From Candidatus Collierbacteria bacterium (GTDB lineage: Bacteria; Patescibacteriota; Microgenomatia; UBA1400; MFAQ01): 64,000 bases of DNA. This document shows, one piece after another, positions 345-25,565 of the stretch (position 1 is the stretch's first letter; every line of letters starts with the position of its first letter). The stretch covers positions 1,637 through 65,636 of the forward strand of contig CAISER010000025.1 in assembly GCA_903884375.1 (NCBI GenBank), written 5' to 3'. A model generated the notes under the pieces. That model saw only the letters and a list, made by a program, of their open reading frames with translations, did not search any database and was not told the DNA's origin. Made by a program: the position numbers and the translations under genes.

Positions 345-392
345 TTAAAAAAATACCCCCGGCGTTTATGCTGGGGGTTTTTGTTTTTTATT
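345..392. terminator. bidirectional intrinsic terminator between convergent genes (stem CCCCCGGC/GCTGGGGG with one G-U pair, loop GTTTAT, A-tract before and T-tract after)
   Basis: sequence aaaaaaataccccc ggcgtttatgc tggggg tttttgtttttta read directly. Confidence 0.5.
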
Positions 393-4143: not shown

Positions 4144-4602
4144 TTATTTAGCTTTTTTTTCTTTTTTGACAACTTTTTTGTCTTCTTTTTCCTGAGTGAC
4201 TTTAGTTTTTTTATCTATCACTTTTTTCTCAACAACCGGCGGCATAGCCATCAAACTTAGAGTGGCAATGGAAGTGGCATCACCTTTTTGAATGGACACT
4301 TTTTGGATGGTGGTAAAACCACTTTTGCGAGTACCCATAACCGGGATAATGGCATCGATAAGTTTGTTAGCTGACTTTGGTGAACCGAGAGCAGCGGCGA
4401 CATTTCGACGAGATGCGAGTGTCCCCTCTGTAGCTTTGGCGGCAAGTTTATCAAACAATCTCTTGATTATTTTAGCTTTGGTGACCGTAGTTGTTAGTTT
4501 TCCATTTTCAATGAGTGAACGTAACTGAACCCTAAACAAGGATTTTCTTGAATTTGAGTCACGGTTGAGTTTGGAAATGATTGAGTGATGACGTCGTCCC
4601 AT
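4144..4602 (-). CDS. rplQ: 50S ribosomal protein L17 (lysine-rich C-terminal tail)
   Basis: MGRRHHSIISKLNRDSNSRKSLFR L17 N-terminus; position after rpoA. Confidence 0.9.
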   Translation of the reverse strand: MGRRHHSIISKLNRDSNSRKSLFRVQLRSLIENGKLTTTVTKAKIIKRLFDKLAAKATEGTLASRRNVAAALGSPKSANKLIDAIIPVMGTRKSGFTTIQKVSIQKGDATSIATLSLMAMPPVVEKKVIDKKTKVTQEKEDKKVVKKEKKAK

Positions 4603-4604
4603 AT

Positions 4605-5507
4605 TTATTCAATAGTAATGCCCTTTTCACCAGCTTTTTCAATAACCTGCAAAGCAGATTTTTCGCCTAAGTTTTTGACTTTTTTGAGGTCAACCAGTGA
4701 GAGAGCTTTAAGATCTGATAATTTGTTGATATCGGCTTTTTTAAGAGCATTGAGAACACGTGTCGGAAGATCAAGATCGTCTACGAAACCAGCGGTTTCA
4801 ATGATTGATTTTGATTTTACTTCCTTGATATAGGCTTGTTCGGAGTTGACATAGTCAAAGAAACTAGTAAGTATACGGGCAGCTCCTTTTACCGCTTCTT
4901 CCGGGGTGATCGTACCATTGGTTGTAAGAGCCAAACGAACCTTGTCATAATTACTGGAACGACCGACACGGGCAGCTTCGATTGTATAGTTGGCTTTGAT
5001 TACTGGTGAGAAAGAAGAATCTAAGGGAATGACACCAATTTCATCGGTAGCATTGTCTTCTGCAGCAACATAACCCATGCCTTTAGCAACAGTCACTATG
5101 GCTGAAAGTTTGGCTTTGGCTGATGTCAAATGACAGAGAATTGTGTTGGGGTTGGCTAAAGAAACATTGGCAGGGAGATCCAAATCCGACGCTTTAACAA
5201 TGGTTTGTCCTGAAGCTTTGAGCTTAATTTCTACCGGCTCATCGGAGTCAACCTGAAAATTTAGTGTTTTTAAATTGAGGATTAATTCCAAAACATCCTC
5301 TTTCATACCTGAAAGGGTGGAGAATTGATGTGTGATCCCGTCAATTTTGACACGAATAGCGGCTCCTCCTTCAAGAGAGGTTAGTAAAACACGACGAAGA
5401 GCATTACCAAGAGTATGACCAAAGTTTTGTGGAAGCGGTTCGATAATAACTTCGGCGGTGTTAACAGCGATATCTTTGACTGAAACTTTGAAATTTGGTT
5501 CTAACAT
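4605..5507 (-). CDS. rpoA: DNA-directed RNA polymerase subunit alpha
   Basis: N-terminal domain GHTLGNALRRVLL and C-terminal alpha-CTD; canonical position S4-rpoA-L17. Confidence 0.93.
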   Translation of the reverse strand: MLEPNFKVSVKDIAVNTAEVIIEPLPQNFGHTLGNALRRVLLTSLEGGAAIRVKIDGITHQFSTLSGMKEDVLELILNLKTLNFQVDSDEPVEIKLKASGQTIVKASDLDLPANVSLANPNTILCHLTSAKAKLSAIVTVAKGMGYVAAEDNATDEIGVIPLDSSFSPVIKANYTIEAARVGRSSNYDKVRLALTTNGTITPEEAVKGAARILTSFFDYVNSEQAYIKEVKSKSIIETAGFVDDLDLPTRVLNALKKADINKLSDLKALSLVDLKKVKNLGEKSALQVIEKAGEKGITIE

Positions 5508-5537
5508 TTTCTTTTGTTTTTTTAATTACTAAATTAA

Positions 5538-6161
5538 TTACCTTGAGTAGAACTCGATAATGAGATTTTCTTTAATATCACTGCCAATCTCATCACGAGT
5601 AGGAAGACGATCAATTTTACCTTCGGCTCCTTTTTTGGATAACCATTTGGCTGGGACGTTTTTTTCGGTCAGGTTGGGAGAGACAAAAGCAAATTTAGTG
5701 GATTTTTCAGAAAGTTTAATTGTTTGACCTGGTTTGGTAATGTATGAGGCAATATCGACTTTTTTGCCATCGACAGTGACATTCCCGTGAGTAACAAGCT
5801 GACGAGCCAAAGAACGGCTAGAAACAAATCCCAGACGGAAAATTATGTTATCCAAACGGGACTCGAGAAGTTGCATGAGAACTTCTCCGGTATTTTGAGC
5901 TGACTTAATAGCTGTTTCGTAGTAAGTGTGAAATTGATTTTCCAAAATTCCATATGAACGTTTGGCTTTTTGTTTCTCACGAAGTTGGATACCATATCCT
6001 GATAGACGGCCATGAGATCTTTTTTTACCATGTTGACCAGGAATTTGGGCACCTTTTTTTTCAATAGGACATTTGGGAGAGAAACAACGCTCTCCTTTTA
6101 GATAAAGTTTGACGCCTTCACGGCGACAAAGTCTGCATTTGGGGTCGATATATTTAGCCAT
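5538..6161 (-). CDS. rpsD: 30S ribosomal protein S4
   Basis: N-terminal CxxC...CxxC zinc knuckle (CRLCRREG...CFSPKC) and S4 domain. Confidence 0.93.
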   Translation of the reverse strand: MAKYIDPKCRLCRREGVKLYLKGERCFSPKCPIEKKGAQIPGQHGKKRSHGRLSGYGIQLREKQKAKRSYGILENQFHTYYETAIKSAQNTGEVLMQLLESRLDNIIFRLGFVSSRSLARQLVTHGNVTVDGKKVDIASYITKPGQTIKLSEKSTKFAFVSPNLTEKNVPAKWLSKKGAEGKIDRLPTRDEIGSDIKENLIIEFYSR

Positions 6162-6182
6162 GTTTTGTTTTCGTATTATTTA

Positions 6183-6635
6183 TTAGACTCTTCTAGTTTT
6201 CTTTGGACGACAACCGTTGTGAGGAATAGGAGTGGTGTCGGCGAGTATATTAATTTCGATACCTGCAGTTTTGAGGACACGAAGGGCGGCATCTTTGCCT
6301 GGGCCTGGGCCTTTGAGGAAAACATCGACTGAAGTAAGACCTAAAGATTTGGCTTTTCTGGTGCCTTCTTCGATAATGGTGGTAGCTGCAAAAGGAGTTG
6401 AGCGTTTGGCACCTTTAAAACCACAAGTCCCAGCAGAACTCCAACAGATGACATCTCCATTCATATTAGTGAAGGAAACATAGGTTGTATTGAAAGTTGA
6501 TTTCACGTACATTTTTCCTTGACCACTTTTGAAATGAACTGCAGAAGCCTTTTTCCCCTTGGAAGTTATTTTGGTGGCAGGTTCAACAGTTACCGGTTCG
6601 GTTATGGTTGGTTCGATTGTTTTTGTTTCTGGCAT
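6183..6635 (-). CDS. rpsK: 30S ribosomal protein S11
   Basis: conserved S11 core; position S13-S11-S4. Confidence 0.92.
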   Translation of the reverse strand: MPETKTIEPTITEPVTVEPATKITSKGKKASAVHFKSGQGKMYVKSTFNTTYVSFTNMNGDVICWSSAGTCGFKGAKRSTPFAATTIIEEGTRKAKSLGLTSVDVFLKGPGPGKDAALRVLKTAGIEINILADTTPIPHNGCRPKKTRRV

Positions 6636-6644
6636 GTTAGTTAT

Positions 6645-7049
6645 TTATTTCTTGGTTGCTGAGGCTTCTGTCTTGGTAGCGTCTTCTTTGGAAATGGCAC
6701 CAATCGTTTTTCTCTTTCCTTTACGGGTACGAGCATTGGTACGAGTTCTCTGACCATGAACAGGAAGACCCATGGTGTGACGAAGACCACGATAAGCTTG
6801 AATTCGTTTTAGAGTTTCGATGTTGTCGCGGACTATTTTTCGAAGTTCACCTTCGGTAGGAAGAGCTTCAATGGCGGCTTGGATACTCTTGAACTCATCC
6901 GAGGTTAGGTTTTTGGTTCTAATGTTGGGATCAACTTTGGCTGTCTTGAGAATATCTTTAGCAACTTTGTCGCCAATGCCAAAAATATAAGTAAGAGCAA
7001 TGTCTATTCTTTTTTCGTTTGGGATATCGATACCGGCAATTCTAGGCAT
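6645..7049 (-). CDS. rpsM: 30S ribosomal protein S13
   Basis: MPRIAGIDIPNEKRIDIALTYIFGIG S13 N-terminus. Confidence 0.94.
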   Translation of the reverse strand: MPRIAGIDIPNEKRIDIALTYIFGIGDKVAKDILKTAKVDPNIRTKNLTSDEFKSIQAAIEALPTEGELRKIVRDNIETLKRIQAYRGLRHTMGLPVHGQRTRTNARTRKGKRKTIGAISKEDATKTEASATKK

Positions 7050-7062
7050 ATTTTATTTTTAG

Positions 7063-7176
7063 TTATCCTTGACGCTGTTTATGGCGTGGGTTGGTACAAA
7101 TAATGAACACCTTCCCATGGCGTTTAATAATTTTGCAGTTTTTGCATCTGGGTCTGACTGACGATTGAACGCGCAT
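7063..7176 (-). CDS. rpmJ: 50S ribosomal protein L36
   Basis: not in ORF track (below size cutoff); hand translation of minus strand gives [37 protein letters not shown], the L36 zinc-ribbon consensus. Confidence 0.88.
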
Positions 7177-7241
7177 GCGTGTTTAGTATTTAGTTAATAA
7201 ATAGTTTTTGTATTATAAAGCAAACGGGGAGTTGAAATAGG

Positions 7242-7460
7242 TCAACCTTGCCGATAAGTGATTCTGCCTTTGTCGGTGTCGTAAGGGCTCATTTCAACCT
7301 TTACTTTGTCACCGGGCATTACACGAATGCGATATAGTCGCATTTTACCTGCAAGATGAGCCAAGATTTCTCTGCCGTCTTCGAGAGTTACCCGAAATTG
7401 TGTGTTGGGTAAAGCTTCGGAAACGACTCCGTTTACCTCAGTCATCTGGTTTTTAGCCAT
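7242..7460 (-). CDS. infA: translation initiation factor IF-1
   Basis: [42 protein letters not shown]1-like IF-1; start trimmed to the MAKNQ ATG. Confidence 0.9.
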
Positions 7461-7591
7461 ATTTTGTTGTACGAGCGTTATTGTATCAAATATAGGCATG
7501 TTTTGCTAGTGCCTTTTTGATACCGCTTTATTGGTTTGATTTTACTATAATTCCCTAAAAAATAGCCATCTCATTTAGGGATAATTATTAA

Positions 7592-8326
7592 TTATTTTAT
7601 GCCTGTGAGAACGAGTGGTCCATTGGCGGTAAGATAGACTGTTTCTTCATAATAGCCTGTAATGGATTTATCTTGGGTTGAAAGTGTCCAACCATCAGGA
7701 TCTTCAACCAAGTGCGAATCTCCCATGGCATACATAGCCTCAATAGCGATTGTTTGGTCTGTTTGGAGTATGTCTTTTTTGTTTTGATTGTCGGCAAACA
7801 CCGGGATGTAGGGATCCATGTGTAGTTTGCGGCCAATCCCATGACCTGTGAGGTCACGAATGACACTATAACCCCCAGCTTCGATAATTTGCTGCATAGC
7901 CAGACTTATATCAAAAACGGAGTTGCCTGGGAGAGCCATGGTTATGGCTTTTTGGAGAGCTTTTTGACCTATTTCAAGGAATTGGCTGATTTTGATATCT
8001 TTTGGCTCGATTTGAACCGTAATGGCAGTATCAAGATGATAACCATTATGGAAAAGTCCCATATCGATTTTGACAACATCACCGGGCTTGAAGGGGGTGG
8101 CATTTGGAATTCCGTGGACCATGCCTTCATTAATATTGATACAAGTAGCATGGTGGTAGCCTGGTTCCATTTTGAAAGAGGCTTTGTCACCACCTTCAGT
8201 AATCAATTTATCAGCCAACGCTTCAATTTCAATTGGAGTGATTCCGACTTTTGCGGCTTTTACAAGCTGAGTTTTAATCTCGGCAAGTCGGGCGCCACCT
8301 TCAGTCATAGCTTCCAACTTTGTCAT
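7592..8326 (-). CDS. map: methionine aminopeptidase type I
   Basis: pita-bread fold metal ligand motifs; canonical position after adk. Confidence 0.9.
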   Translation of the reverse strand: MTKLEAMTEGGARLAEIKTQLVKAAKVGITPIEIEALADKLITEGGDKASFKMEPGYHHATCININEGMVHGIPNATPFKPGDVVKIDMGLFHNGYHLDTAITVQIEPKDIKISQFLEIGQKALQKAITMALPGNSVFDISLAMQQIIEAGGYSVIRDLTGHGIGRKLHMDPYIPVFADNQNKKDILQTDQTIAIEAMYAMGDSHLVEDPDGWTLSTQDKSITGYYEETVYLTANGPLVLTGIK

Positions 8327-8886
8327 TTTATTATTGTCAATTTACTAACAATATCATTGAAAATGGTCTGGATATCCGGTGTTCCATCTATTACCAAGAG
8401 TTTTCCTTGAGAACGATAATTTTCGATAATAGGAAGTGTAGTTTCTTCGTAAATTTTAAGTCTTTCGTTAATGGCGATTGGAGTGTCGTCTGTACGGTGT
8501 TCGATTTCGGCTCTTTTTCCGAGACGACGGAGACTTTCTTCTTTGGGAATTTCCAATAATATTACTTTGTCGATTTCGATTTTCTTTTCTTTAAAAAATG
8601 AATTCAAATACTCCGCTTGTTGAGAATCGCGGGGCGTTCCATCCAAAACAAAACCGGAAATAGCAGATAACAGTGCCGGTTCAAGAACTGAAACGATAGT
8701 TTCAAAAGGCATAAGTTTACCTGTTGTTAGAATTTTGGCAATAATTTTGCCTTTTTCTGAACCACTTTCCGCTTCATTTCGCAATAGTTCACCAGTAGAA
8801 ATGTGTTTTAGACCAAATTTTTCTGAAAGTAGTTTGGCTTGAGTGCCTTTGCCAGAGCCTTGGGGACCTAAGATTATTAAATTCAT
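8323..8886 (-). CDS. adk: adenylate kinase (short form, no zinc LID insertion)
   Basis: P-loop ILGPQGSGKGTQA and position secY-adk-map. Confidence 0.92.
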   Translation of the reverse strand: MNLIILGPQGSGKGTQAKLLSEKFGLKHISTGELLRNEAESGSEKGKIIAKILTTGKLMPFETIVSVLEPALLSAISGFVLDGTPRDSQQAEYLNSFFKEKKIEIDKVILLEIPKEESLRRLGKRAEIEHRTDDTPIAINERLKIYEETTLPIIENYRSQGKLLVIDGTPDIQTIFNDIVSKLTIIK

Positions 8887-8887
8887 T

Positions 8888-10174
8888 CTAATCCAAGAAT
8901 TTATCGTAACTGTACATGAAAAGTTGAGAGTTGATGGTTTTTAAAATCTCAAGAACAACCGAGACAACGATGAGAATGCTGGTACCGCCAATGGCTAACG
9001 ATGCTATACCAGTAAAGCCTGACATTATCGAGGGAAGAATGGCAACCAATCCGAGAAAACTGGCGCCAACCAAAGTAATACGGGTGAGAACAAAATTAAG
9101 ATAGTCTACGGTATTTGGGCCTGGTCTGATTCCCGGAATAAACGAGCCGGAAGAACGAAGATCTTTGGCAATTTTTTCCGGATTGAATACAACGGCAGTA
9201 TAGAAATAGGTAAAAGCAACAACAAGAACAAAGTAAAGAATATTGTAGAGAGCAGAACTGGGAGTAAGAAGACGACTAATCGTGGTAGCAAAACCAGCAA
9301 GAGCAGGTTGATTTACCCTACCCAATATCTGACTAAGCATCCCCGGAATAAGCATAAAAGAAACTGCAAAGATGATGGGAATAACACCGGCTTGGTTTAA
9401 ACGAAGAGGTAAATGAGAACTGGCGACAGCACTGTATGACGAAGAACCTCCACGACGAGCCGACTGAATAGGAATTTCACGAACTGCTTCTCCGGTTCTC
9501 ACAATCGCATAGATAGCGGCGATAGCAAAAATAAGAAAAATTAGATAGGAAAATATTTTAGTCTGATCTATAGTAGTAAGAGTTTGCATAAGATTTATCG
9601 GAATACGACTAACGATGCCAACAAAGATAATTAAACTAATACCGTTTCCCAGACCGTAATCGTTTAACTGTTCACCCATCCAAATAAGGAGAGAGGTTCC
9701 GGCGGCTAAGGTAAAAACGATTGAAGCCAGTTGTAGAGGATCTACTGTAGTAGTTAATCCCTGCTTTTGAAGAAGAAAAATAAGTGCTATACCTTGAAGA
9801 AAACAGAGAGGAATAGTGAGAAGACGAGTATATTGATTAATTTTTTGACGACCATAATCCCCTTCTTTTTGAAGAGCTTCAAGCTTGGGGATAACCATGC
9901 CGAGCATCTGGAAAATAATTGAGGCGTTGATGTAAGGGTTTAGACCAAGGGCCATAATGGAAAAGTTACCTAAAGTGCCACCAGAAAAGACGTCAAGAAG
10001 TGAGAGAAAGGCAGAGGAATTGAACATCTCTTTGAGGGCAGCGAGATTGATCCCTGGTGCCGGAACGTGGGCTACCAGGCGGAAAATAGCGATGATTATG
10101 GCAGTAAAAATTAGACGATTGCGTAGCTCTTTGATTTTTATGAGAGCACGTAGCGGAGCTAATATATTATTCAT
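8888..10174 (-). CDS. secY: preprotein translocase subunit SecY
   Basis: 10 TM helices, conserved IPxPGI; start set at ATG (MNNILAPLRALIKIKELRNRL), the ORF-track start at 10204 is a TTG. Confidence 0.93.
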   Translation of the reverse strand: MNNILAPLRALIKIKELRNRLIFTAIIIAIFRLVAHVPAPGINLAALKEMFNSSAFLSLLDVFSGGTLGNFSIMALGLNPYINASIIFQMLGMVIPKLEALQKEGDYGRQKINQYTRLLTIPLCFLQGIALIFLLQKQGLTTTVDPLQLASIVFTLAAGTSLLIWMGEQLNDYGLGNGISLIIFVGIVSRIPINLMQTLTTIDQTKIFSYLIFLIFAIAAIYAIVRTGEAVREIPIQSARRGGSSSYSAVASSHLPLRLNQAGVIPIIFAVSFMLIPGMLSQILGRVNQPALAGFATTISRLLTPSSALYNILYFVLVVAFTYFYTAVVFNPEKIAKDLRSSGSFIPGIRPGPNTVDYLNFVLTRITLVGASFLGLVAILPSIMSGFTGIASLAIGGTSILIVVSVVLEILKTINSQLFMYSYDKFLD

Positions 10175-10187
10175 TGGTTTTATTTTA

Positions 10188-10691
10188 TCAGGTTCGTAGT
10201 GCAATTAAGGCAATGTTGTAAACAAAATTGATGGGTGTTCGTTCTAGAATAATACCAGCACTTGCACAAGTGGCAAAAAGATTTACCCCTAAAGCTTCTG
10301 GATTAAAAATGACGTCACCTTGAATATCGGGCCTACCTGGAAGTTCGTTTTCAAGAAAATGTCTAAGTTCACTGCGGAGATGGTTTTGCCAGTGACGGGG
10401 ATTTCTTAGGGCTCTATCCGTCCAGTCGGGATGTTTTTCTCTTTTTTGGGCCAAGTATTCGGCAAAATTAAAACGGATTGCAGCAATATGTGCTTCTTTT
10501 TGATAAATGTCGGGAAAGTATGGAACATGGGGAGGACAACCAGTTTTGTAATTCCAGTTTGGACAGCCTTGGGGATGATTGTAGTAAGCATCACGGCAAT
10601 GGGCTTTGATTCGAGGATCACAAACAACTTCAACCGGACCAATAAATAATTTTTCTCTTTCGATAAATTTAATTTCTTTTTCAACAGACAT
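10188..10691 (-). CDS. hypothetical Cys-motif protein inserted between rplO and secY (C-x7-C ... C-x8-C, HPQGCPNW)
   Basis: 167-aa ORF with ATG start filling a 550-nt gap in the otherwise tightly packed spc operon; no Shine-Dalgarno; no family recognised. Confidence 0.45.
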   Translation of the reverse strand: MSVEKEIKFIEREKLFIGPVEVVCDPRIKAHCRDAYYNHPQGCPNWNYKTGCPPHVPYFPDIYQKEAHIAAIRFNFAEYLAQKREKHPDWTDRALRNPRHWQNHLRSELRHFLENELPGRPDIQGDVIFNPEALGVNLFATCASAGIILERTPINFVYNIALIALRT

Positions 10692-10711
10692 CGTGGTGAA
10701 ATTTTACACCA

Positions 10712-10740
10712 TAAAAAAGACCCCTTGAGGGGCCTTTTTT
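10712..10740. terminator. intrinsic terminator-like hairpin (CCCC-TTGA-GGGG flanked by A6/T6) between rplO and the inserted ORF; possible attenuator inside the ribosomal operon
   Basis: aaaaaagaccccttgaggggcctttttt read directly. Confidence 0.5.
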
Positions 10741-10754
10741 GTTTTTAATTCTAG

Positions 10755-11204
10755 TTACTTAGAAAAGGTGTATTTTCCACCAGCTTTTTCGATGGCTTTG
10801 ATAGCTCCGGCCGTGGCTAGAACATTGACTTCAAGAGCTTTTTCGAGCTTACCTGTGGCAATGATCTTGAAGCCACGTTTGGCTTCTTTGTCACTTACTT
10901 TGAAAGTTTTGACGAGGAGTGCAGCGTCAATGACGTCTTTGTCGTTGAAATATTTGGAGAGGATATCAAAGTTAACAGTGATTGGCTGAAGGTTAATGAC
11001 TTGGAATCTGTGTTTACCTTTAATGAAAGGGGTACGACGGACGATTGGAAGCTGTCCACCTTCAAACCAAAGGGGCATAACACCACGGGTCTTTTGGCCC
11101 TTTTGGCCACGACCAACGGTGTGACCGCCAACTCCTGAACCATAACCTCGACCAAGGCGTTTTTTACCGGTTTTGACTGATTTGGGTAGATTAGATAAGT
11201 TCAT
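10755..11204 (-). CDS. rplO: 50S ribosomal protein L15
   Basis: GRGYGSGVGGHTVGRGQKGQK L15 glycine-rich N-terminus. Confidence 0.93.
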   Translation of the reverse strand: MNLSNLPKSVKTGKKRLGRGYGSGVGGHTVGRGQKGQKTRGVMPLWFEGGQLPIVRRTPFIKGKHRFQVINLQPITVNFDILSKYFNDKDVIDAALLVKTFKVSDKEAKRGFKIIATGKLEKALEVNVLATAGAIKAIEKAGGKYTFSK

Positions 11205-11209
11205 AGGAT

Positions 11210-11743
11210 TTAGGCTTTGGTTTTAAGTTCTTTTAAGAGTTTGTATTTCTTGGCAAGTGACTCAACCTGTTTTAAAGCTTTGAAGGTGGCTCTAGCGTTG
11301 GTAGTCTTGTTGTTTGATCCAAGGGCTTTACAGACAATATCAGTGACTCCTGCGGCCTCAACAACGGCACGGATTGAAGAACCGGCGATGATGCCTGTAC
11401 CTTTAGGAGCTGGACGGAAGAGAACTTTACTGGCACCAAATTTAGAAATGGTCTCGTAAGGGATGGTACCGTTGACCAATGGAACTTGAACCAGATCACG
11501 ATTTCCAAGACGAATGGCTTTTTTTATTGCATCGGCAACGTTTGGGGCTTTGGCCAGACCAAGACCGACTTTACCTTTTTTGTCACCGGTAACGACTAAG
11601 GCAGAGAAAGAAACGTTGGAACCACCTTGAGTCTTTTTACTAACACGGCGAATTTGAAGGACTTGCTCGAAACCATCAGACTGAGGACGTTCTCCTCGGC
11701 CACCACGGTTACTGTTGTTGTTTGAGTTGTTTGAAGGATTCAT
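11210..11743 (-). CDS. rpsE: 30S ribosomal protein S5 (Asn-rich N-terminal extension); directly followed by L15 with no L30 gene
   Basis: S5 dsRBD-like and C-terminal domains; operon position. Confidence 0.93.
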   Translation of the reverse strand: MNPSNNSNNNSNRGGRGERPQSDGFEQVLQIRRVSKKTQGGSNVSFSALVVTGDKKGKVGLGLAKAPNVADAIKKAIRLGNRDLVQVPLVNGTIPYETISKFGASKVLFRPAPKGTGIIAGSSIRAVVEAAGVTDIVCKALGSNNKTTNARATFKALKQVESLAKKYKLLKELKTKA

Positions 11744-11748
11744 AAAAT

Positions 11749-12096
11749 TTAAAATTTGATTCCTGATTCGCGAACGGATTCGGCTAAGATTTTAACTCGG
11801 CCATGGAAACGATAAGAACCGCGATCAAAAATGACGTTTTCGATTTTAGCTTCTTTGGCGGCTTTTCCTAATAAAGTTCCAATTTCTTTGGCTTGTTCCA
11901 TTTTGTTACCCTTAAAATTTTTAAGAGTTTGGGAAGTTGCTGCAGCTAAGACATGTCCGTCTTTTCTAATAATTTGGGCGCCGATGTGCTGGTTTGAACG
12001 GAGCACGGTCAAGCGAGGTAAATTGGTTCCGGCTAAAAGCTTGGCACGAACACGATGCTGTCTTTTGGCCTTAGAGGTTAAGGTGTTTTGAATCAT
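11749..12096 (-). CDS. rplR: 50S ribosomal protein L18
   Basis: position L6-L18-S5 and conserved L18 core. Confidence 0.92.
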   Translation of the reverse strand: MIQNTLTSKAKRQHRVRAKLLAGTNLPRLTVLRSNQHIGAQIIRKDGHVLAAATSQTLKNFKGNKMEQAKEIGTLLGKAAKEAKIENVIFDRGSYRFHGRVKILAESVRESGIKF

Positions 12097-12113
12097 TTTT
12101 GTTAATAAATTAA

Positions 12114-12665
12114 TTAAGCGGCAGTAGTTTTTGTGGCTGTCTTACCTTGTTTTTTGATAACAACTTCATCAGCGTAGCGAATACCTTTACCTTTATATGG
12201 TTCAGGTTTTTTGAGCTCACGGATATTGGCGGCAACTTGACCGACAAGTTGTTTGTCGATACCCGAGATGTGAATTTTGTCTTGACCTTCAACTATCATA
12301 TTGACGCCTTCAACTTTTTTGAAAATGACGGGGTGACTGAAACCTAAAGATAGAGAAAGACCTTCAGCTGTAGCGGCTACACGATAACCTGTGCCTAAGA
12401 GCTGAAGATGTTTTTCGTATCCTTCGGTAACTCCAGTAACGCAGTTTTGGGCTAAACGACGAGCGAGGCCATGAAGGGCTCTAACTGATGGAATATCGTT
12501 TTCGCGAGTAAAGTTTATAACATTGTCTTTTTGTTCGACTTTAATTCCCTTGGGAACAACGGATTCAAGAGTACCTTTTGGTCCAGTGAATTTAAGCGAA
12601 GTATCAAGCATTTCTACTTTAACAGTTTCGGGGAGATATAGAGGTTTTCTTCCTATGCGGCTCAT
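12114..12665 (-). CDS. rplF: 50S ribosomal protein L6
   Basis: MSRIGRKPL start (internal ATG of the longer ORF, 4 nt after rpsH stop). Confidence 0.92.
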   Translation of the reverse strand: MSRIGRKPLYLPETVKVEMLDTSLKFTGPKGTLESVVPKGIKVEQKDNVINFTRENDIPSVRALHGLARRLAQNCVTGVTEGYEKHLQLLGTGYRVAATAEGLSLSLGFSHPVIFKKVEGVNMIVEGQDKIHISGIDKQLVGQVAANIRELKKPEPYKGKGIRYADEVVIKKQGKTATKTTAA

Positions 12666-12669
12666 ATTT

Positions 12670-13059
12670 TTACCAAATTTGACAAATAACTTCACCACCG
12701 AGATGTTTTTCTCGAGCGGTTTTTCCGGTCATGAGACCTTGTGATGTAGAAACAATGGTGGTACCAGCACCGGATAAGGCTTGAGGAATTTTGTCGAAGC
12801 CGGAATAGATTCTTACACTGCCTTTACTAATACGTTTAATACCAGTAACGGCAGGAAGATCTTTTTCGAAATAACGAAGGTCAAGAATAATTTTTTTTGA
12901 TGGTTTGGTGTTTTCTACAGAGTAATCAGTAATGTAACCGTCGGCCTTAAGAAGTTTTGCGATTCCTTCACAAACTATAGTGTGTTTGGCTATGACGGTA
13001 TCTTTTTTTGCGAGATAGCCGTTTCTTATAATGGTGATGAAGTCAGCAATTGTATCCAT
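12670..13059 (-). CDS. rpsH: 30S ribosomal protein S8
   Basis: MDTIADFITIIRNG S8 N-terminus; start trimmed to abut rpsN. Confidence 0.92.
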   Translation of the reverse strand: MDTIADFITIIRNGYLAKKDTVIAKHTIVCEGIAKLLKADGYITDYSVENTKPSKKIILDLRYFEKDLPAVTGIKRISKGSVRIYSGFDKIPQALSGAGTTIVSTSQGLMTGKTAREKHLGGEVICQIW

Positions 13060-13060
13060 A

Positions 13061-13246
13061 TTATTTTGACATTTTGTAGACGCCCGGAAGTTCACCTTTG
13101 TGGGCTAATTCTCTAAAGCACAAGCGACATAATCCGAAGATTCGAATGACACCTCGAGGTCTGCCACATAATTGACAACGACGACGATCTCTAGTCGAGT
13201 GACCAACTAATCTTTTTGATTTTTCGATTTTACTTGTTTTAGCCAT
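13061..13246 (-). CDS. rpsN: 30S ribosomal protein S14, zinc-binding Z-type (61 aa)
   Basis: CQLCGRPRG...CRLCFRE zinc ribbon, length 61 aa. Confidence 0.93.
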
Positions 13247-13254
13247 GGTTTAAC

Positions 13255-13806
13255 TTAGTTTGCGTCTTTGGTAAAAGGCATACCGAGAGCAGTAAGAAGC
13301 ATCAGGGAAGTTTTTGCGTCTTTGGCACTTGTTGAAATAGTAATTTCCAAGCCTTGAATCCTGCCTATTTTATCATATTCGACCTCGGGAAACACAATTT
13401 GTTCGGAAAGCCCGAGAGTGTAGTTGCCATTTTGATCAACGGTTTTTTGAGAAACACCTTGGAAGTCTTTAATACGAGGCAGAACAATGGAAGTGAGTTT
13501 TTGGAAAAAGTCATACATACGATTACCTCTAAGAGTAACTTTGATTCCAACAACTTCTCCTTCACGAAGATTAAAGGCAGCGATACTGTGTTTGGCTTTA
13601 GTTTCAACAGGTGCTTGGCCGGTGATTTGGGTGATCCATGCCTTGGTTTTGGCGAGAAGCTCTTTGTCTGTTTTGAAGTCTCTGGATGAAGTATTTAATG
13701 TAATTTTCACCAATTTTGGGGTAGCTTCAATCGAAGAAAGTCCTAGCTCTTTTTGTAAAGCCGGTCTGATTGTTTTTTGATAGTTTTCTTTTAGTGTTTG
13801 AGTCAT
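13255..13806 (-). CDS. rplE: 50S ribosomal protein L5
   Basis: position L24-L5-S14 and conserved core. Confidence 0.93.
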   Translation of the reverse strand: MTQTLKENYQKTIRPALQKELGLSSIEATPKLVKITLNTSSRDFKTDKELLAKTKAWITQITGQAPVETKAKHSIAAFNLREGEVVGIKVTLRGNRMYDFFQKLTSIVLPRIKDFQGVSQKTVDQNGNYTLGLSEQIVFPEVEYDKIGRIQGLEITISTSAKDAKTSLMLLTALGMPFTKDAN

Positions 13807-14129
13807 TTTTTCTTGGTTTCGCTGGTGATAACTTGACGACAGAGGTGACAGACGCGAACCTTAGGAGTCTGTGAGGCATCAAAACCTATCCTGGTAGCCT
13901 TACCGCAGCTCGGGCAGACAAGTGCGACCGAAGCGGTGGAAATGGCACGAGGAAGAGTAACTATCGAACCGGCTTCGTTGCCTTTGGGTTTGAGATGTTT
14001 TTTATAGACATTTAAACCTTCGACTAAAACTTTTTGATCTCCTGGAAGAACTTTAATGATTTTTCCAGTACGACCTTTATCTTTACCGGCGGTTATTTTT
14101 ATGGTATCTCCAATTTTAAATTTAAACAT
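13803..14129 (-). CDS. rplX: 50S ribosomal protein L24 with C-terminal CxxC...CxxC zinc-ribbon extension
   Basis: KOW motif FKFKIGDTIKITAGKDKGRTGKI; C-terminus CPSCGK...CHLCRQ. Confidence 0.92.
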   Translation of the reverse strand: MFKFKIGDTIKITAGKDKGRTGKIIKVLPGDQKVLVEGLNVYKKHLKPKGNEAGSIVTLPRAISTASVALVCPSCGKATRIGFDASQTPKVRVCHLCRQVITSETKKK

Positions 14130-14135
14130 ATTCTT

Positions 14136-14510
14136 TTAAACAACTTCGGGTGCTAAAGAGGCAATTTTGGCAAATCCAGCATCTTTGACTTCACGGGCGA
14201 TGGGTCCAAAAATACGGGTGCCGAGAGGTTGTTTGCCAGCAATTGAGTCAATAATAACAACAGCGTTGTCATCAAAACGAACATAAGTACCGTCGGGACG
14301 ACGAGTTTCTTTGCGACATCTCACGATGACGGCTTTAACGACTTGTTTGTCCTTGACTGTACCGTTTGTGTCTGAACCTTCAACGGCGGCGGTGACGATA
14401 TCACCCACAAAACCGAATCGTCTGCGAGAACCACCATGAACCAGAATAACTTTAACTAGTTTGGCACCAGAGTTGTCGGCAACATTGAGGACTGATCTTA
14501 GTTGAATCAT
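14136..14510 (-). CDS. rplN: 50S ribosomal protein L14
   Basis: [18 protein letters not shown]14 N-terminus. Confidence 0.95.
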
Positions 14511-14734
14511 AATACTTTAGTTATTTGCCAATGTTTATTTTTACTTATGGGTCTCGTATCTTTGAGTTGAACTTTGTCGCCTTCTTTTGCACCAATTTCG
14601 TTGTGAGCAGAATATGATTTATTTACCTTGATACGTTTGAGGTATTTCGGGTGAACTTGAAAATGAACCACGTCAACCACAGCAGTTTTCATCATCTTAG
14701 CGCTTTTGACAGTTCCAATTAGTTGTTTTTTCAT
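14507..14734 (-). CDS. rpsQ: 30S ribosomal protein S17
   Basis: OB-fold S17, position L29-S17-L14. Confidence 0.92.
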
Positions 14735-14735
14735 A

Positions 14736-14933
14736 TTATTTATTATTTGATTTTCCTCCAGAGGCGGATCCGACTTTGGCGGATGATAGCAATTGAGCGA
14801 TTTGAACTTTGGTTTTTTTGTGAGCGTTGGTATTTTTTTCTTGATTAGCTTTAATCTTTAGTTTGATATCAGCCAATTTAATTTTTAACTCGTCAAGGGT
14901 TTCGATGGTGTTCTCCGTCTTTGTTTTAGGCAT
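14736..14933 (-). CDS. rpmC: 50S ribosomal protein L29
   Basis: 65 aa helical protein in canonical position. Confidence 0.88.
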   Translation of the reverse strand: MPKTKTENTIETLDELKIKLADIKLKIKANQEKNTNAHKKTKVQIAQLLSSAKVGSASGGKSNNK

Positions 14934-15339
14934 TTTCTTTTTCTATAAATTTTGTTTTAACGGACAATTTGTGACCTGCAAGTCGAATCGCTTCTGCAGC
15001 AATTTCTCGACTGACACCGGAGATTTCCATAAGAATTTGACCAGGTTTAACGACGGCAACATAAGCTGAAACATCGGATTTTCCTGAACCCATACGCGCC
15101 CCGGGTGTTTTCCAACCGATTGGCTTGTGAGGAAAAACTCTTAAAAAGAATTTACCCATACGTTTGGTGTGGTGAGTAATAGTACGACGTGCTGACTCGA
15201 TTTCAGCGGCGGTAACCCAACCACAAACTTCGGATTTGATTCCATATTCACCATAGGCTAAGAAGTTGCTTCTGGTAGCAACACCACCCATAGAACCTCG
15301 GAACTCTTTTCTGTATTTGCGTCTTGATGGTTGTAGCAT
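14926..15339 (-). CDS. rplP: 50S ribosomal protein L16
   Basis: MLQPSRRKYRK L16 N-terminus. Confidence 0.94.
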   Translation of the reverse strand: MLQPSRRKYRKEFRGSMGGVATRSNFLAYGEYGIKSEVCGWVTAAEIESARRTITHHTKRMGKFFLRVFPHKPIGWKTPGARMGSGKSDVSAYVAVVKPGQILMEISGVSREIAAEAIRLAGHKLSVKTKFIEKENA

Positions 15340-15354
15340 AGTCTTTAAATTAAA

Positions 15355-16008
15355 TTAGATGATGATATCTCCGGTATAGATCCAAACTTTGATGCCCACA
15401 TAACCGGAACGAGTGAGGGCGGGTTTTTCGACATAATCGATATTGGCACGAAGAGTTTGTGTAGGGATACGGCCCTGTTTAAATTTTTCGGTACGGGCGA
15501 TTTCAGCTCCATCGATACGACCGGCGAAGACGATTTTGACACCCTTGGCTCCAGCAGCCATAACTTTTTCGATGGCTTGGTTAGCGGCTCTGCGGAAAGG
15601 ATAACGGTGTTCCAGCTGATTCGCTAAACGGTCGACAATAATCCCCGCGGAGAGTTCTGGATTTTTAATTTCCATCGGATGGAGATTAATTTTGATAGCG
15701 TTTTTAGCCTTCAAATCAATCTTTAATAGTTTTTCAACATCTTTTTTGAGCTGTTCTAAAGAAGAACCGCCGCGTCCAATGACGACACCAGGTCGTGAAA
15801 CATACATAAAAATATCAACAGTGTTGATACTTCGTTTGATTTCAATATTGGTAATACCAGCTAGTTTCAATTTTTCCTCAAGAAAACGTCTGATTTTATT
15901 GTCTTCAAGAACAAACTTGGCGTAATTTCGAAAATTGCTGTACCAAACAGATCTCGTAGGGAACGTGTAGCCGGTTCTAAAAATGGTAGGATTGACTTTT
16001 TTACCCAT
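15355..16008 (-). CDS. rpsC: 30S ribosomal protein S3
   Basis: MGKKVNPTIFR start (trimmed to abut rplV), KH domain. Confidence 0.93.
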   Translation of the reverse strand: MGKKVNPTIFRTGYTFPTRSVWYSNFRNYAKFVLEDNKIRRFLEEKLKLAGITNIEIKRSINTVDIFMYVSRPGVVIGRGGSSLEQLKKDVEKLLKIDLKAKNAIKINLHPMEIKNPELSAGIIVDRLANQLEHRYPFRRAANQAIEKVMAAGAKGVKIVFAGRIDGAEIARTEKFKQGRIPTQTLRANIDYVEKPALTRSGYVGIKVWIYTGDIII

Positions 16009-16009
16009 G

Positions 16010-16426
16010 TTATTTAGTTTTTTTAGTGGTTGCTGCTTTGGCCTCAACTTTTGGAGTTACTACTTTTGGAGAAGCAACTCTTAATTTTAAGGTTAGATGA
16101 GAAGAAATTCTTTCATATGGTTTGGTACGGCCACGACCGCCAATATGGGCTCGTTTGACGGTACGACCCTTAGTGGCGAAAGCGGAGTCGATAATGAGAG
16201 TGTCCGGTGAGAGTTGTTTTTGAGAAACGGCGTTACCAATGGCTTGTTTTATAAGCTTGGCAATGGGATCTGAAGCTCTTTTTTGGATAACCGAAAGTTG
16301 TTTAATAGCTAATAGTGCGGGTCGACCAACCAAAGCCTTAAGGATAAGGTTTGTTTTGCGGGGAGAGGAGAGTACATGACTCTCACGAGCAACGATTAGA
16401 TTGGTGTTTTCTTTATTAGTAGCCAT
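16010..16426 (-). CDS. rplV: 50S ribosomal protein L22
   Basis: canonical position S19-L22-S3. Confidence 0.9.
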   Translation of the reverse strand: MATNKENTNLIVARESHVLSSPRKTNLILKALVGRPALLAIKQLSVIQKRASDPIAKLIKQAIGNAVSQKQLSPDTLIIDSAFATKGRTVKRAHIGGRGRTKPYERISSHLTLKLRVASPKVVTPKVEAKAATTKKTK

Positions 16427-16431
16427 ATTTT

Positions 16432-16716
16432 TTATGTTTTGGTTAAGAGTCTCTTAACAATTCGTCCATGTCCTCTAAAGTTTCTTGTGGCCGAAAATTC
16501 ACCCAAGCGATGGCCAACCATATCTTCGGTAATAAAAACGTCTTTAAAAACTTTGCCATTATGGACTAAAAAGGTGTAACCAACAAATTCCGGAGGAATC
16601 TGTGAAGATCTTGCCCAGGTTTTAATAGGTTCTTTTTTACCCGAGTTTTTCATACGCTCAACTTTAGCGATAAGCTTCTCGGCTACATATGGTCCTTTGA
16701 TCGAACTTCTGGACAT
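16432..16716 (-). CDS. rpsS: 30S ribosomal protein S19
   Basis: [11 protein letters not shown] and [11 protein letters not shown] motifs. Confidence 0.95.
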
Positions 16717-16718
16717 AA

Positions 16719-17477
16719 TTAATGGTTATAACGATGTTTAATAATTGATTTATTGCTATATTTCTTTTTGTTTCTGGTTCTTTTACCCATGGTTCTTTTA
16801 CCCCAAGGAGATTTTGGAGATTTCATACCGACACCGGAACGACCTTCACCACCACCGTGGGGGTGAGATCTTGGATCTTGAGCAACACCACGAACTGTGG
16901 GACGGATACCCATATGGCGTTTGCGTCCGGCTTTTCCAAGGATTTCTTCTTTGTGATGTTCGTTTGTTAAACTTCCAATTGTGGCCTTACAAGCACCTTT
17001 GAAAATGCGAATTTCACCTGATGGTAATTTAACCGAAACCAATTCTCCTTCTTTGGACTGAACTGTGGCTGAGTTACCGGCGCTTCTGACCATTTGGGCA
17101 CCTTTTCCGGGGGTGATTTCCAGATTATGAATCTGAATACCAATTGGAATGTTTTTTAATGGCAGACAATTGCCAATTTTGATTTCGGCAGTTTCGGAAG
17201 AAATAATGATATCTCCGACTTTGAGACCTTGAGGGGCCAGAATATAGTCTTTGACACCATTTCCATAGACTAAAAGTGCAATATCGGCTGTACGATTTGG
17301 ATCGTACTCGATAGAAGCCACCTTAGCGGACAACGCCAAACTACGCTTCCAGTCGATATGACGAAGAAAGCGTTTTTCGCGGCCACCTTGATGACGAACT
17401 GTTATTTTACCAGAAAAATTTCGGCCTGACGATTTTGGATTAATTGATTTAAGTTTTTTAGATGAATTTGTCTTCAT
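16719..17477 (-). CDS. rplB: 50S ribosomal protein L2
   Basis: conserved L2 C-terminal region [17 protein letters not shown]. Confidence 0.95.
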
Positions 17478-17482
17478 AGGCT

Positions 17483-17791
17483 TTAAGACTTAAGTGCGGA
17501 AAAGAGATCAATTTTTTGACCTGCTTTTATTTTAACGATAGCTTTTTTGTCGGTTGGTCTGGTAATATGTCGACCAGTTTTTCTTGATTTTTCACTTCTG
17601 GCGTTGTGTTTTACTGTGTTGATACTTAATACATTTACTTTGAATAGATCTTCAACAGCTTTTTTTATCTGATATTTACTGGAAGCTGGATCAACTTTAA
17701 AAACGTATTTATCAAGCGCTGAAAGAACATAACTTTTTTCGGTGACAACAGGGCTAATAATAGTGTTTTGGTGAATAAGTGGTGTAGACAT
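17483..17791 (-). CDS. rplW: 50S ribosomal protein L23
   Basis: position L4-L23-L2. Confidence 0.9.
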   Translation of the reverse strand: MSTPLIHQNTIISPVVTEKSYVLSALDKYVFKVDPASSKYQIKKAVEDLFKVNVLSINTVKHNARSEKSRKTGRHITRPTDKKAIVKIKAGQKIDLFSALKS

Positions 17792-17793
17792 AT

Positions 17794-18411
17794 TTATTTA
17801 GATTTGGCGGATAAAACGGTTTTAAGTCTTTCTGTTAAGTGGATATAGGCACTGGGGGTTATGACAAGTTTGGGGCTTTGAACCACCTTGTAGACGTTTA
17901 AACGATTGGCTGAAAGTAATACAACATTTTTAAGATTACCAATAGCTTGGAGGGTTTTTGTTTCTTCATGGAAATGAACAAGACCAAGATTTTCGGAACC
18001 AAGAGCTTTAAGTGCAGATTTGGTGGAGTGGTCTTTGATACTATCAATGTCGAGCAATGAAAGACGGCCTTCTTTGTTGTAAAGGGACAAAGCGCCAAGA
18101 AGTGCCTTTATTTTCATTTTTTTATTGAGAGATTTTGGTGTAAGTTTTAAGCCACGAGGACCAAAAACGACTCCTCCTCCCACAAAGATTGGAGCAGACT
18201 TGGCTCCATGACGAGCATTTCCAGTACCTTTTTGTTTGTAAACTTTCTTTTTGGTATAGTCTATTTCACCACGAGTTTTGACTTTGGATACTCCAACGTG
18301 AGAGTTTTCTTGATAAACATAAATTGCTTGAGCAAGAAGAGAAGGAGTTACCTCGATATTAAATATCGAAAGATCGGGCATAGTTTTGGTTTGAACTTTT
18401 TTTGTAGCCAT
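17794..18411 (-). CDS. rplD: 50S ribosomal protein L4
   Basis: position L3-L4-L23; conserved core. Confidence 0.92.
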   Translation of the reverse strand: MATKKVQTKTMPDLSIFNIEVTPSLLAQAIYVYQENSHVGVSKVKTRGEIDYTKKKVYKQKGTGNARHGAKSAPIFVGGGVVFGPRGLKLTPKSLNKKMKIKALLGALSLYNKEGRLSLLDIDSIKDHSTKSALKALGSENLGLVHFHEETKTLQAIGNLKNVVLLSANRLNVYKVVQSPKLVITPSAYIHLTERLKTVLSAKSK

Positions 18412-18414
18412 AGT

Positions 18415-19017
18415 TTATAGAATAGTGATCTTGGTAACTGCTCCACGGCCACCAGGAATAGCTCCGGTTATTTGAAGTATGCCTGACTCGTTATCAAAAG
18501 AGTGAATTCTTAAGTTTTCGATAGTAACGTTGACATCGCCCATATGACCAGCCATATGTTTGCCTTTGACAACTCTTCCGGGGGTTGTTCCACGGGCGAT
18601 AGATCCAGGAGCGCGACCTCTATCAGATTGGCCATGAGTGCGTGGACCACCAGCAAAACCCCAACGTTTCATAACACCAGAGGTACCCTTGCCTTTTGAA
18701 GTTGCAGTAACATTAATTAATGTTCCCGGAACTAATATTTCGGCAAGATTATAATTTTCCGATTCCTGAAGAGAAATTTCTCTGATTATTTTTGGAGTAA
18801 TTCCAATACCGGTTTTTTTGAGATAACCAGCAAGAGGTTTGTTGGCTTTTTTTCGATTACCGATGCCAATTATTTGTGCCTCATAACCATCTTTTTCAAT
18901 AGTTTTTTGAGAAATAACCACGTGAGGATCTACCGAGAGAACGGTCAAGGGGATCCGCTTACCTTCTACGAAGGTTTGAGACATAGCTCTTTTGATTGCG
19001 TATACTTGTTTTGTCAT
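18415..19017 (-). CDS. rplC: 50S ribosomal protein L3
   Basis: AIKRAMSQTF matches L3 N-terminal GKKVGMTQIF pattern. Confidence 0.93.
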   Translation of the reverse strand: MTKQVYAIKRAMSQTFVEGKRIPLTVLSVDPHVVISQKTIEKDGYEAQIIGIGNRKKANKPLAGYLKKTGIGITPKIIREISLQESENYNLAEILVPGTLINVTATSKGKGTSGVMKRWGFAGGPRTHGQSDRGRAPGSIARGTTPGRVVKGKHMAGHMGDVNVTIENLRIHSFDNESGILQITGAIPGGRGAVTKITIL

Positions 19018-19104
19018 TTTTATTAATAGATTACCCGACCCGATTATCGGGGAAACCGAAAACCGGAAAGGGAAGTTTTAGTTATTTAAAGATAGCGACA
19101 TTTG

Positions 19105-19422
19105 TTACATCTTGATTTCAATACCAACACCAGCTGGAAGATCAAGGTGCTGAAGAGAATCAATTGTCTTATTGGTTGGGTTCACAATATCAATAAGTCT
19201 CTTGTGAGTGAGGATGGCAAATTGTTCACGAGAGTCTTTGTCGGTGTGAGGAGAAGCGGTAACGACAACAACTTTCTTCTTGGTGGGCAATGGCACAGGA
19301 CCAACCACCTGAGCGCCAGAAACTAAGGCTGCTTGAATAATTTTTTTGGCAGCTTCATCGATAACACGATGATCAAATGATTTTAGTTTGACGCGAATAC
19401 GTGGTTGGTCTGTCATGTTCAA
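19105..19422 (-). CDS. rpsJ: 30S ribosomal protein S10
   Basis: [16 protein letters not shown]10 signature. Confidence 0.95.
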
Positions 19423-19445
19423 GAAGAATAAATGTGCGATTTTGG

Positions 19446-19464
19446 GCCTAAATCGAATTTAGGC
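19446..19464 (-). terminator. 8-bp stem-loop (GCCTAAAT-CGA-ATTTAGGC) overlapping the tuf stop codon; possible partial terminator/attenuator between tuf and rpsJ
   Basis: perfect inverted repeat read directly; no strong U-tract on transcript so terminator function uncertain. Confidence 0.3.
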
Positions 19465-20634
19465 GATAACCTTGGTAATAACACCAGCGCCAACTGTAAG
19501 TCCACCTTCGCGGATAGCGAAGTTTTGGCCTTCCATCATAGCGATTGGCTGAATAAGTTCAACATTCATCTTGGCATTGTCACCAGGCATAATCATCTCA
19601 ACGCCTTCGGGAAGTTTAACTTCTCCAGTGACGTCGGTGGTTCTGATAAAGAATTGAGGTTTGTAACCTGTGAACATTGGAGTGTGGCGACCACCCTCAT
19701 CTTTGCCTAAGATATAAGCTTCGGCTTCAAATTTAGTGTGAGGAGTGATTGAGCCAGGCTTGGCCAAAACTTGACCTCTTTGGACATCATCTTTTTCAAC
19801 ACCTCTAAGTAATAGACCAACATTGTCTCCTGCTTGGCCTTGCTCGAGTTGTTGGTGGAACATTTCAACTCCGGTAACGACTGATTTAGTGGTATCTTTG
19901 ATACCAACAATTTCAATTTCATCTCCGATTTTGACGATTCCGGTTTCAATACGTCCAGTAACAACTGTACCGCGACCTTTGATAGAAAAAACGTCTTCAA
20001 CAGGCATAAGGAAAGGTTTGTCGAGATCACGAACTGGATCTGGGATCCATTCATCAACCGTATCCATTAGTTTCATAATTCCTGCTTGAGCTTCTTTGTC
20101 TCCTTCGAGAGCTTTGAGTGCTGACACACGAACGATTGGAGTGTCTTCCTCAAATTTATATTTTTTCAATAACTCTTTAATTTCCATTTCGACCAGCTCA
20201 AGAAGTTCTGGATCTGAAACGGCATCAACTTTATTTAAGGCAACTACCAATCGAGGAACGTTAACTTGGTGAGCCAAAAGTAAATGTTCTTTGGTTTGAG
20301 GCATTGGACCGTCTGTAGCAGCAACAACCAAAATACCTCCATCCATCTGGGCTGCACCGGTGATCATATTTTTGATGTAGTCGCGGTGACCTGGACAGTC
20401 AATATGTGCATAATGACGTTTGGATGTCTCATAAGGAACGTGAGAAATATTGATTGTAACTCCTCGTTCTCTTTCTTCGGGAGATTTATCAATTTGATCA
20501 AAAGGAAGAGCTTCTGCAAGTCCTTGAGCTGCTAATGTGGTGGTAATAGCGGCAGTAAGAGTGGTCTTGCCGTGGTCGACGTGACCGATAGTGCCGATAT
20601 TAACGTGAGGTTTGGTTCTTTGGTATGTAGCCAT
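19459..20634 (-). CDS. tuf: elongation factor Tu
   Basis: [16 protein letters not shown]1 motif; 391 aa. Confidence 0.97.
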
Positions 20635-20706
20635 TTTTGTTAATTTTTTTTAATTATTTATAATTGCGCTTTTTCAAGCCTATTTATTTTAGCAGATTTT
20701 ACTCTA

Positions 20707-25545: not shown

Positions 25546-25565
25546 TTATTCTATATATTATAGGA

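Follow-up and report, generated by a model that had tools for sequence, protein, structure and literature searches.

A DUF2284-like accessory gene with its own putative -10 box at the rplO–secY junction of Candidatus Collierbacteria

The junction between rplO and secY in a genome of Candidatus Collierbacteria is probably the boundary of two transcription units that hosts an accessory gene, here called X, rather than the site of an operon-internal regulator. This reading is drawn from a 64-kb stretch of DNA (the window) and its comparison with related loci. The gene order flanking the junction is shared with the spc operon of Escherichia coli and Bacillus subtilis (...rpsE-(rpmD)-rplO-secY-(adk-map-infA)); the absence of rpmD is usual in the Candidate Phyla Radiation. 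Unlike the E. coli and B. subtilis operon, the window has a terminator-like hairpin, an extra gene, and two -10 boxes between rplO and secY (Table 1), and sister genomes hold up to four extra genes at this junction.

Table 1. Features of the rplO–secY region of the window and the basis of each assignment
Feature	Position	Strand	Basis
rplO (ribosomal protein L15), end of the ribosomal-protein transcription unit	10755-11204	minus	149-aa ORF
Intrinsic (Rho-independent) terminator-like hairpin	10713-10740	minus	fold; position kept in relatives
GGTGTAAAAT box, putative -10 element (TAAAAT)	10701-10710	minus	conserved 10-mer
Gene X, 167-aa DUF2284-like predicted metal-binding protein, ATG start; invariant C32/C43/C52 with H39 or H87	10188-10691	minus	homologues; dN/dS
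TGATAAAAT, putative extended -10 box of secY	10182-10190	minus	TGnTAnAAT in related loci
secY, 428 aa	8888-10174	minus	76-93% identical to SecY of related loci
adk, downstream of secY	8323-8886	minus	
map, downstream of secY	7592-8326	minus	
infA, downstream of secY	7242-7499	minus	confirmed

The distance from the rplO stop codon to the secY ATG is 580 nt in the window. An earlier note on this DNA had described a hairpin and a 167-aa ATG-initiated ORF in this gap; both are present on the minus strand. The distance of 13 nt that it gave from the end of the ORF to secY holds for the secY ATG at 10174. A TTG at 10204, given as the secY start in the ORF-tool listing, was rejected as a longest-ORF artefact because the secY homologues all begin MNN(L/I)LAPLRA. 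The window rplO is 72-94% identical to rplO of the related loci, where the Pfam domain Ribosomal_L27A is precomputed, and the Pfam domains SecY, ADK, and Peptidase_M24 are precomputed in relatives of the window locus.

X is a real gene under purifying selection and encodes a single-domain protein of about 165 aa. A search of 5.8 billion proteins returned 28 homologues with E values from 1e-114 to 7e-14, one database entry being identical, and a profile search of 1.84 billion cluster representatives (50% identity) found about 724 X-family clusters. In comparisons with five orthologues, pN was 0.14-0.26 and pS was 0.65-0.87 (synonymous sites saturated), with a dN/dS of 0.05-0.2, and the differences numbered 29, 22, and 84 at the first, second, and third codon positions, respectively. 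An AlphaFold2 model generated from an alignment of 28 sequences (mean pLDDT 92.2, pTM 0.84) is a single alpha+beta domain in which a long structured loop, residues 34-58, bears a Cys/His motif; no signal peptide or transmembrane-like segment was seen in this model. A foreign composition of X was considered and rejected, since its GC (0.40) and GC3 (0.27) are within the range of the neighbouring genes.

The protein appears to be best described as a divergent branch or relative of the DUF2284/COG5423 family and not as a curated member. Its sole Pfam match is DUF2284 (PF10050, "predicted metal-binding protein"), which covers residues 41-81 with a score of 23.3 bits (E = 6e-5), just below the gathering threshold of 25 bits. 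Since this score is sub-threshold while other family proteins reach 30.2, 31.4, and 26.7 bits, above the cut-off, X was filed as a divergent relative of PF10050. The PF10050 domain is precomputed for 19 of the 28 homologues, and across the X family the matches run collinear with the profile at both its N-terminal end (positions 20-61) and its C-terminal end (positions 105-159), the latter being matched by other family members. An orthologue with 62% identity carries the JGI name "predicted metal-binding protein". Like DUF2284/COG5423 proteins, X is a single domain of about 160 aa with a Cys-rich loop ending in C-P-P, and the domain makes up the whole 167 aa. The X branch is set apart from DUF2284 by the signature C-x6-H-x3-C-P-N-x6-C-P-P, HPDW, (Y/H)WQ, and PEAxG(V/I)(N/D). 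The alpha+beta folds of nitroreductases, CblC (MMACHC), and the MetH activation domain are also among the nearest known systems, as weak fold matches.

Both of the paired Cys motifs pointed out in the earlier note are present in X, as C-x7-C (C24/C32) and HPQGC-x8-C (H39/C43/C52). C32, C43, and C52 are invariant, whereas C24 is kept in near relatives only. Close homologues share the invariant residues C32, Y36, H39, G42, C43, N45, C52, P53, H87, W90, W101, Q102, E132, A133, and G135. Across 81 diverse representatives of the family, C32, Y36, G42, C43, C52 (together with P53), and Q102 are invariant and H87, P88, W90, W101, P131, E132, and G135 are found in at least 90%, H39 being near-invariant there and strictly invariant solely among the close homologues. 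The predicted Cys3(+His) loop most likely holds a Zn or Fe-S centre. The proposal of a novel small metal-binding protein was therefore right in that X is a genuine, selected gene of the Cys/His metal-binding type, but X is not wholly novel, as it belongs to a branch of the already catalogued DUF2284/COG5423. A PDB sequence search with two profiles gave no relative of X and nothing below E = 0.15, and no model in NCBIfam, PHROGs, or PADLOC (anti-phage defence and phage models) matched it. The literature search found two incidental mentions of DUF2284, no functional study of it, and nothing on COG5423.

In agreement with the rplO-X-secY synteny that the earlier note had proposed to look for in sister genomes, X lies between rplO and secY in all ten related Collierbacteria genome loci that carry it, with X identities from 81% down to 42% and SecY identities of 76-91%. 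The interval behaves as a variable slot: its length is 0.58 kb in the window, against 0.6-3.7 kb among the relatives, and it contains 0-4 extra ORFs. The extra DNA consists of same-strand units, each with its own -10 box, often a Shine-Dalgarno (SD) motif, a small ORF, and a terminator. At least three ORF families recur in the slot, in four, three, and two loci, respectively, and these had no Pfam or PADLOC match. Orphan cassettes were located in L013 (4082-4938), L016 (4500-4862), L017 (3196-4600), L019 (3684-4875), L020 (3644-7183), L023 (414-2158), L144 (616-1742), and L149 (7675-9399), and a protein resembling M28 peptidases is found in the slot of L020 and L149. Many of the cassette genes have a clear SD motif as well as their own -10 boxes, unlike the core genes of the window.

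Some of the slot sequences are repetitive. A 53-nt segment comprising a terminator tail, promoter, and leader is repeated at 92% identity in L019, and near-identical hairpins flank X in L019 and L020. One slot hairpin, CCACCCYTMACYGGGTGGTTTT (CCACCC...GGGTGG-T4), looked slot-specific among the fetched loci and was considered as an attC-like cassette recombination site. This was rejected: 10 of its 66 exact metagenomic occurrences are in the slot, and the contigs range from 30 to 64% G+C. Because the other 56 occurrences lie elsewhere, at widely different G+C, this hairpin is regarded as a generic terminator. The slot is like an integron cassette array in its tandem series of small orphan genes on one strand at a fixed chromosomal site, with a palindromic hairpin at the end of each gene, and in the repeated junction sequences of L019 and L020. 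Unlike in integron arrays, each slot cassette has a promoter of its own, and no integrase was found in the flanks examined, so the combination of integrase and attC that marks an integron was not seen.

The metagenome scan for this hairpin also served as a sample of the slot that is independent of X, in which X was present in seven loci and absent in two (L144 and L149). L144 is a close relative of the window locus (rplO 94% and SecY 93% identical) that lacks the X coding sequence and carries two other cassettes. It nevertheless keeps both -10 boxes, in the order GGGTGTAAAAT, 29 nt, and CTGCTAAAAT-AAAACA-ATG(secY). Since L144 and L149 are without X, the gene is dispensable, and secY would be expressed without it. 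Judging from these loci, X is the commonest and oldest occupant of the slot, and a dispensable one.

The hairpin after rplO begins 15 nt past the stop codon and has the sequence AAAAAA-GGCCCC-TCAA-GGGGTC-TTTTTT, that is, A6, a 6-bp G+C stem with one G-U pair (core stem 10719-10734), a 4-nt loop, and T6. In an 81-nt context it folds with -24.2 kcal/mol (z = -4.7), as good a fold being reached by 0 of 200 shuffles, and it is among the 3-4 clean terminator-like hairpins of the window. A terminator occupies the same post-rplO position in L013, L014, L015, L016, and L144, with stems that are different or only partly similar, and no post-rplO hairpin is present in L017 and L019. Folding and conservation in relatives, two of the checks on the hairpin suggested earlier, gave a stable structure and a position kept in five loci. 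With a stem-loop and a U-tract following a stop codon, and with its position rather than its sequence conserved, we infer that the hairpin is an ordinary intrinsic terminator that would end the ribosomal-protein transcript. As a separate feature of three related loci, a conserved and apparently structured segment of 40-100 nt lies past the rplO stop codon and before the terminator in L014 (4850-4935), L144 (~1845-1800, minus strand), and L017 (2975-3035). It reads TCATCACGAGGAGTGTA(A/C)TCACGACGTGGTGATCT, in L014 and L017 also ...TCATTGCG...GGCAATC, and is absent from the window.

Each of the two genes that follow the hairpin is preceded by a -10-like box. The GGTGTAAAAT box is positioned 9 nt upstream of the X ATG in the window, and L013, L015, L016, and L017 each have a single copy of the exact 10-mer, 7-12 nt ahead of the X ATG; its counterpart in L014 is AGTGTAAAAT. 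The spacers around it are otherwise unconserved and unalignable. In this box the TAAAAT hexamer is conserved, the TG is one position nearer to the hexamer than in canonical extended -10 boxes (TGnTAnAAT), and there is no evident -35 element. TGnTAnAAT is the textbook extended -10 element, and every one of the 11 Collierbacteria loci has it 7-12 nt ahead of the secY ATG. In the window it takes the form of TGATAAAAT, 7 nt upstream of the ATG, and its TGA is the X stop codon; in other loci it is preceded by the X coding sequence (L013), a terminator (L019, L023, and L025), or another cassette. Because the box lies inside the X coding frame in L013, it is taken to be a DNA-level signal. A simple sigma-70 scan called neither the X box nor the secY box. 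A promoter-like site inside X (10276-10249) was discarded as one of 26 matches against 25 expected by chance.

Three other window genes, with starts at 34979, 40269, and 26466, have the extended -10 box 6-13 nt before their start codon. In the bin 0-9 nt ahead of the window starts, TAnAAT hexamers are enriched (8 versus 0-4 in other bins), and 18 of the 19 TGnTAnAAT matches in the window are on the gene-bearing minus strand. Further window starts with a -10 or extended -10 box 5-13 nt upstream are those at 48255, 35400, and 1284. An SD motif (GGAG, GAGG, or AGGA at -20 to -4) was found for only 2 of the 71 window ORFs. The earlier note had correctly observed that X has none, but this does not distinguish X from its neighbours and is uninformative because so few of the window ORFs have one. 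Leaderless mRNAs from -10 or extended -10 promoters are well described in Actinobacteria, Deinococcus, and archaea. As in those systems, 8-9 window genes have a -10 hexamer 5-13 nt before the start and no SD motif; unlike in them, the X box is without a canonically spaced TG. X and secY each probably start a leaderless or near-leaderless mRNA from their own -10 box, and the pattern as a whole suggests widespread leaderless or near-leaderless transcription in this genome. A literature search on leaderless transcription in Patescibacteria found nothing relevant.

Three other explanations of the region were weighed against these data. The missing SD motif might be taken to mean that ORF X is spurious and that the region is a mere long 5' UTR of secY, a reading that the earlier note had linked to a reading frame unconserved among relatives and devoid of a third-position pattern. 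It has practically no chance of being correct, as the conserved reading frame already refutes it: differences fall mostly at third codon positions, dN/dS is low with synonymous sites saturated, homologues number in the hundreds, the fold is predicted with confidence, and SD motifs are nearly absent throughout the window. The earlier note had also considered the hairpin as an attenuator controlling secY-adk-map-infA expression, and a regulated attenuator of the riboswitch, protein-binding, or leader-peptide type could indeed tune read-through into X-secY-adk-map-infA. Such a device would fit a strong hairpin located within a region that is one operon in model bacteria, as well as the unusual A-tract/T-tract symmetry of this hairpin. 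However, no upstream segment pairs with the 5' arm of the terminator, and constrained folding showed that forbidding the stem by blocking its 3' arm costs about 18 kcal/mol and yields no replacement, leaving no competing alternative structure. An Rfam scan of 7000-21000 gave no family, with two sub-threshold chance matches (the best being Atu_C8, 25.6 versus 50 bits). There is no leader ORF, the stem sequence is unconserved among relatives, two of which (L017 and L019) have no hairpin, and a conserved -10-like box comes directly after it. An attenuator is therefore highly improbable, and an ordinary terminator remains the preferred reading of the hairpin.

The third explanation makes X a factor of the translocon, for example a metallochaperone or an accessory subunit, functionally coupled to SecY, with one promoter driving the expression of both. 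It draws on the placement of X in the window and in L013-L017, where it lies immediately ahead of secY across a terminator-free gap of 5-44 nt, and on the presence of X in the rplO-secY interval in every Collierbacteria genome locus that carries it (10 of 10). Against it, none of the homologues in WWE3, other Patescibacteria, Bacillota, Planctomycetota, an Asgard archaeon, and the 73 phage contigs adjoins secY, and X is parted from secY by other genes or a terminator in L020, L023, L025, and L029. Moreover, secY has a conserved -10 box of its own, the slots of L144 and L149 are without X, and the X model shows no signal peptide or transmembrane-like segment. We consider this explanation very unlikely, and co-expression with the translocon, which the earlier note had put forward, does not stand as a specific link, since X is unlinked to secY elsewhere, secY has its own box, and two relatives do without X. 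Since X is co-oriented with secY and no terminator separates them in the window, read-through co-transcription from X into secY is possible. X is kept at this locus in most of the sampled Collierbacteria, and in the window's clade it borders secY directly with no terminator between them, so co-expression with secY may bring some functional benefit.

Outside Collierbacteria, X homologues were found in WWE3, other Patescibacteria, Bacillota, Planctomycetota, an Asgard archaeon, and others, never near secY. They are also frequent in phages, at 73 IMG/VR loci, many of 100-316 kb, and in a 735-kb record labelled "uncultured phage". The phage neighbours include DNA polymerase A, DNA methylases, UDG, HNH, HD, NT5C, ribonucleotide reductase, radical SAM, and ParB proteins. 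Neighbours were counted at 31 genome loci from outside Collierbacteria and at 49 phage loci after dereplication; the most recurrent one within three genes was a family-4-UDG-like protein (7 dereplicated lineages, mostly immediately downstream), followed by an HD-domain protein (5 lineages). No conserved operon partner was found, any one family occurring in at most about 10% of lineages; because the neighbours are this heterogeneous, the UDG-like and HD proteins are leads only. In three WWE3 loci (L021, 2150-6279; L022, 4359-6286; L026, 5434-6285), the gene directly downstream of the X homologue encodes a DNA alkylation repair protein resembling AlkD (PF08713, E = 1e-59), with an MGMT/Atl-like DNA-binding protein and a NUDIX hydrolase nearby, and this locus may be a small DNA-damage island. 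Fusions of the X domain to NADAR and to a P-loop kinase were also found. In one phage lineage (L063-L070, IMG/VR, 4475-8086), the X homologue is directly upstream of a gene for a 1203-aa protein, probably a fusion of a UDG-like protein and DNA polymerase A; relatives of this protein in Bacillota loci (L034 and L041) bear a family-4-UDG-like motif (…AEAPGRLGA…).

Members of the family occur widely in large phages and in scattered bacteria, in or next to genes for DNA replication, repair, and nucleotide metabolism. X is therefore most likely a horizontally acquired accessory metallo-enzyme or cofactor protein that acts on nucleotides or DNA, as far as guilt by association at the level of such modules can tell. 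A more specific proposal is that the slot is a dedicated landing site for orphan cassettes and that X is a Cys3-His metallo-enzyme, spread by phages, that acts on damaged or modified bases together with DNA glycosylases (family-4 UDG-like, AlkD-like) or nucleotide-modifying enzymes. This proposal is tentative, and we regard it as rather unlikely in this full form.

In the arrangement that we favour, transcription of the ribosomal-protein genes would end at the hairpin after rplO, and X would have a transcript of its own, leaderless or nearly so, started from the GGTGTAAAAT box 9 nt before its ATG. Such a start would fit a genome that is almost entirely without SD motifs. The secY gene would be started from its own TGATAAAAT box overlapping the X stop codon and therefore would not depend on X transcription, although X transcripts are expected to continue into secY. 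In Candidatus Collierbacteria, promoter-ORF-terminator cassettes of orphan proteins would be gained and lost in the slot, and the window would represent its minimal state, namely, a terminator, the X promoter, X, the secY promoter, and secY.

Several other features of the window were observed. In the str cluster, a gene for a 686-aa DEAH/HrpA-like helicase (DEAD, Helicase_C, HA2, and OB_NTP_bind; 22947-25007, minus strand) lies between rpsG and fusA, an insertion that makes a second break in a normally contiguous ribosomal gene cluster in the window. Ahead of the helicase gene lie a hairpin that resembles a strong bidirectional terminator (AAGCGCCC...GGGCGCTT, 25109-25145) and a 77-aa orphan ORF (25149-25382). 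The neighbouring rpsG (ribosomal protein S7; 25540-26046, minus strand) is split by a frameshift, its N-terminal 57 aa (25868-26041) ending in a stop codon and the remainder of S7 (…EVRSRRVGGASYQVP…HKMAESNKAFAHFRW) lying in another frame down to ~25566. The probable cause is an assembly or homopolymer error close to an A-run, though the frameshift may be real. Another strong bidirectional terminator hairpin (CCCCCGGCG...GCTGGGGG, 346-385; -15 to -17 kcal/mol on either strand) sits between the convergent ORFs 28-336 (plus strand) and 388-1101 (minus strand).

Together, these results correct an appealing reading of the locus, in that neither a new regulator of translocon expression nor a partner of SecY is supported. 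They provide a clear example of how, in a lineage of the Candidate Phyla Radiation, accessory genes and what appear to be a terminator and promoters can interrupt the "universal" spc cluster. The junction, a possible dedicated landing site, sits within the most conserved gene cluster of bacteria. In this SD-poor genome, many genes, including secY, would start from -10 boxes 5-13 nt before the ATG, and such starts bear on how genes are called and expression is modelled in uncultured Patescibacteria. For X itself, a defined DUF2284 branch with invariant residues, a confident model, and an association with phages and DNA metabolism provides a starting point for work on its function.
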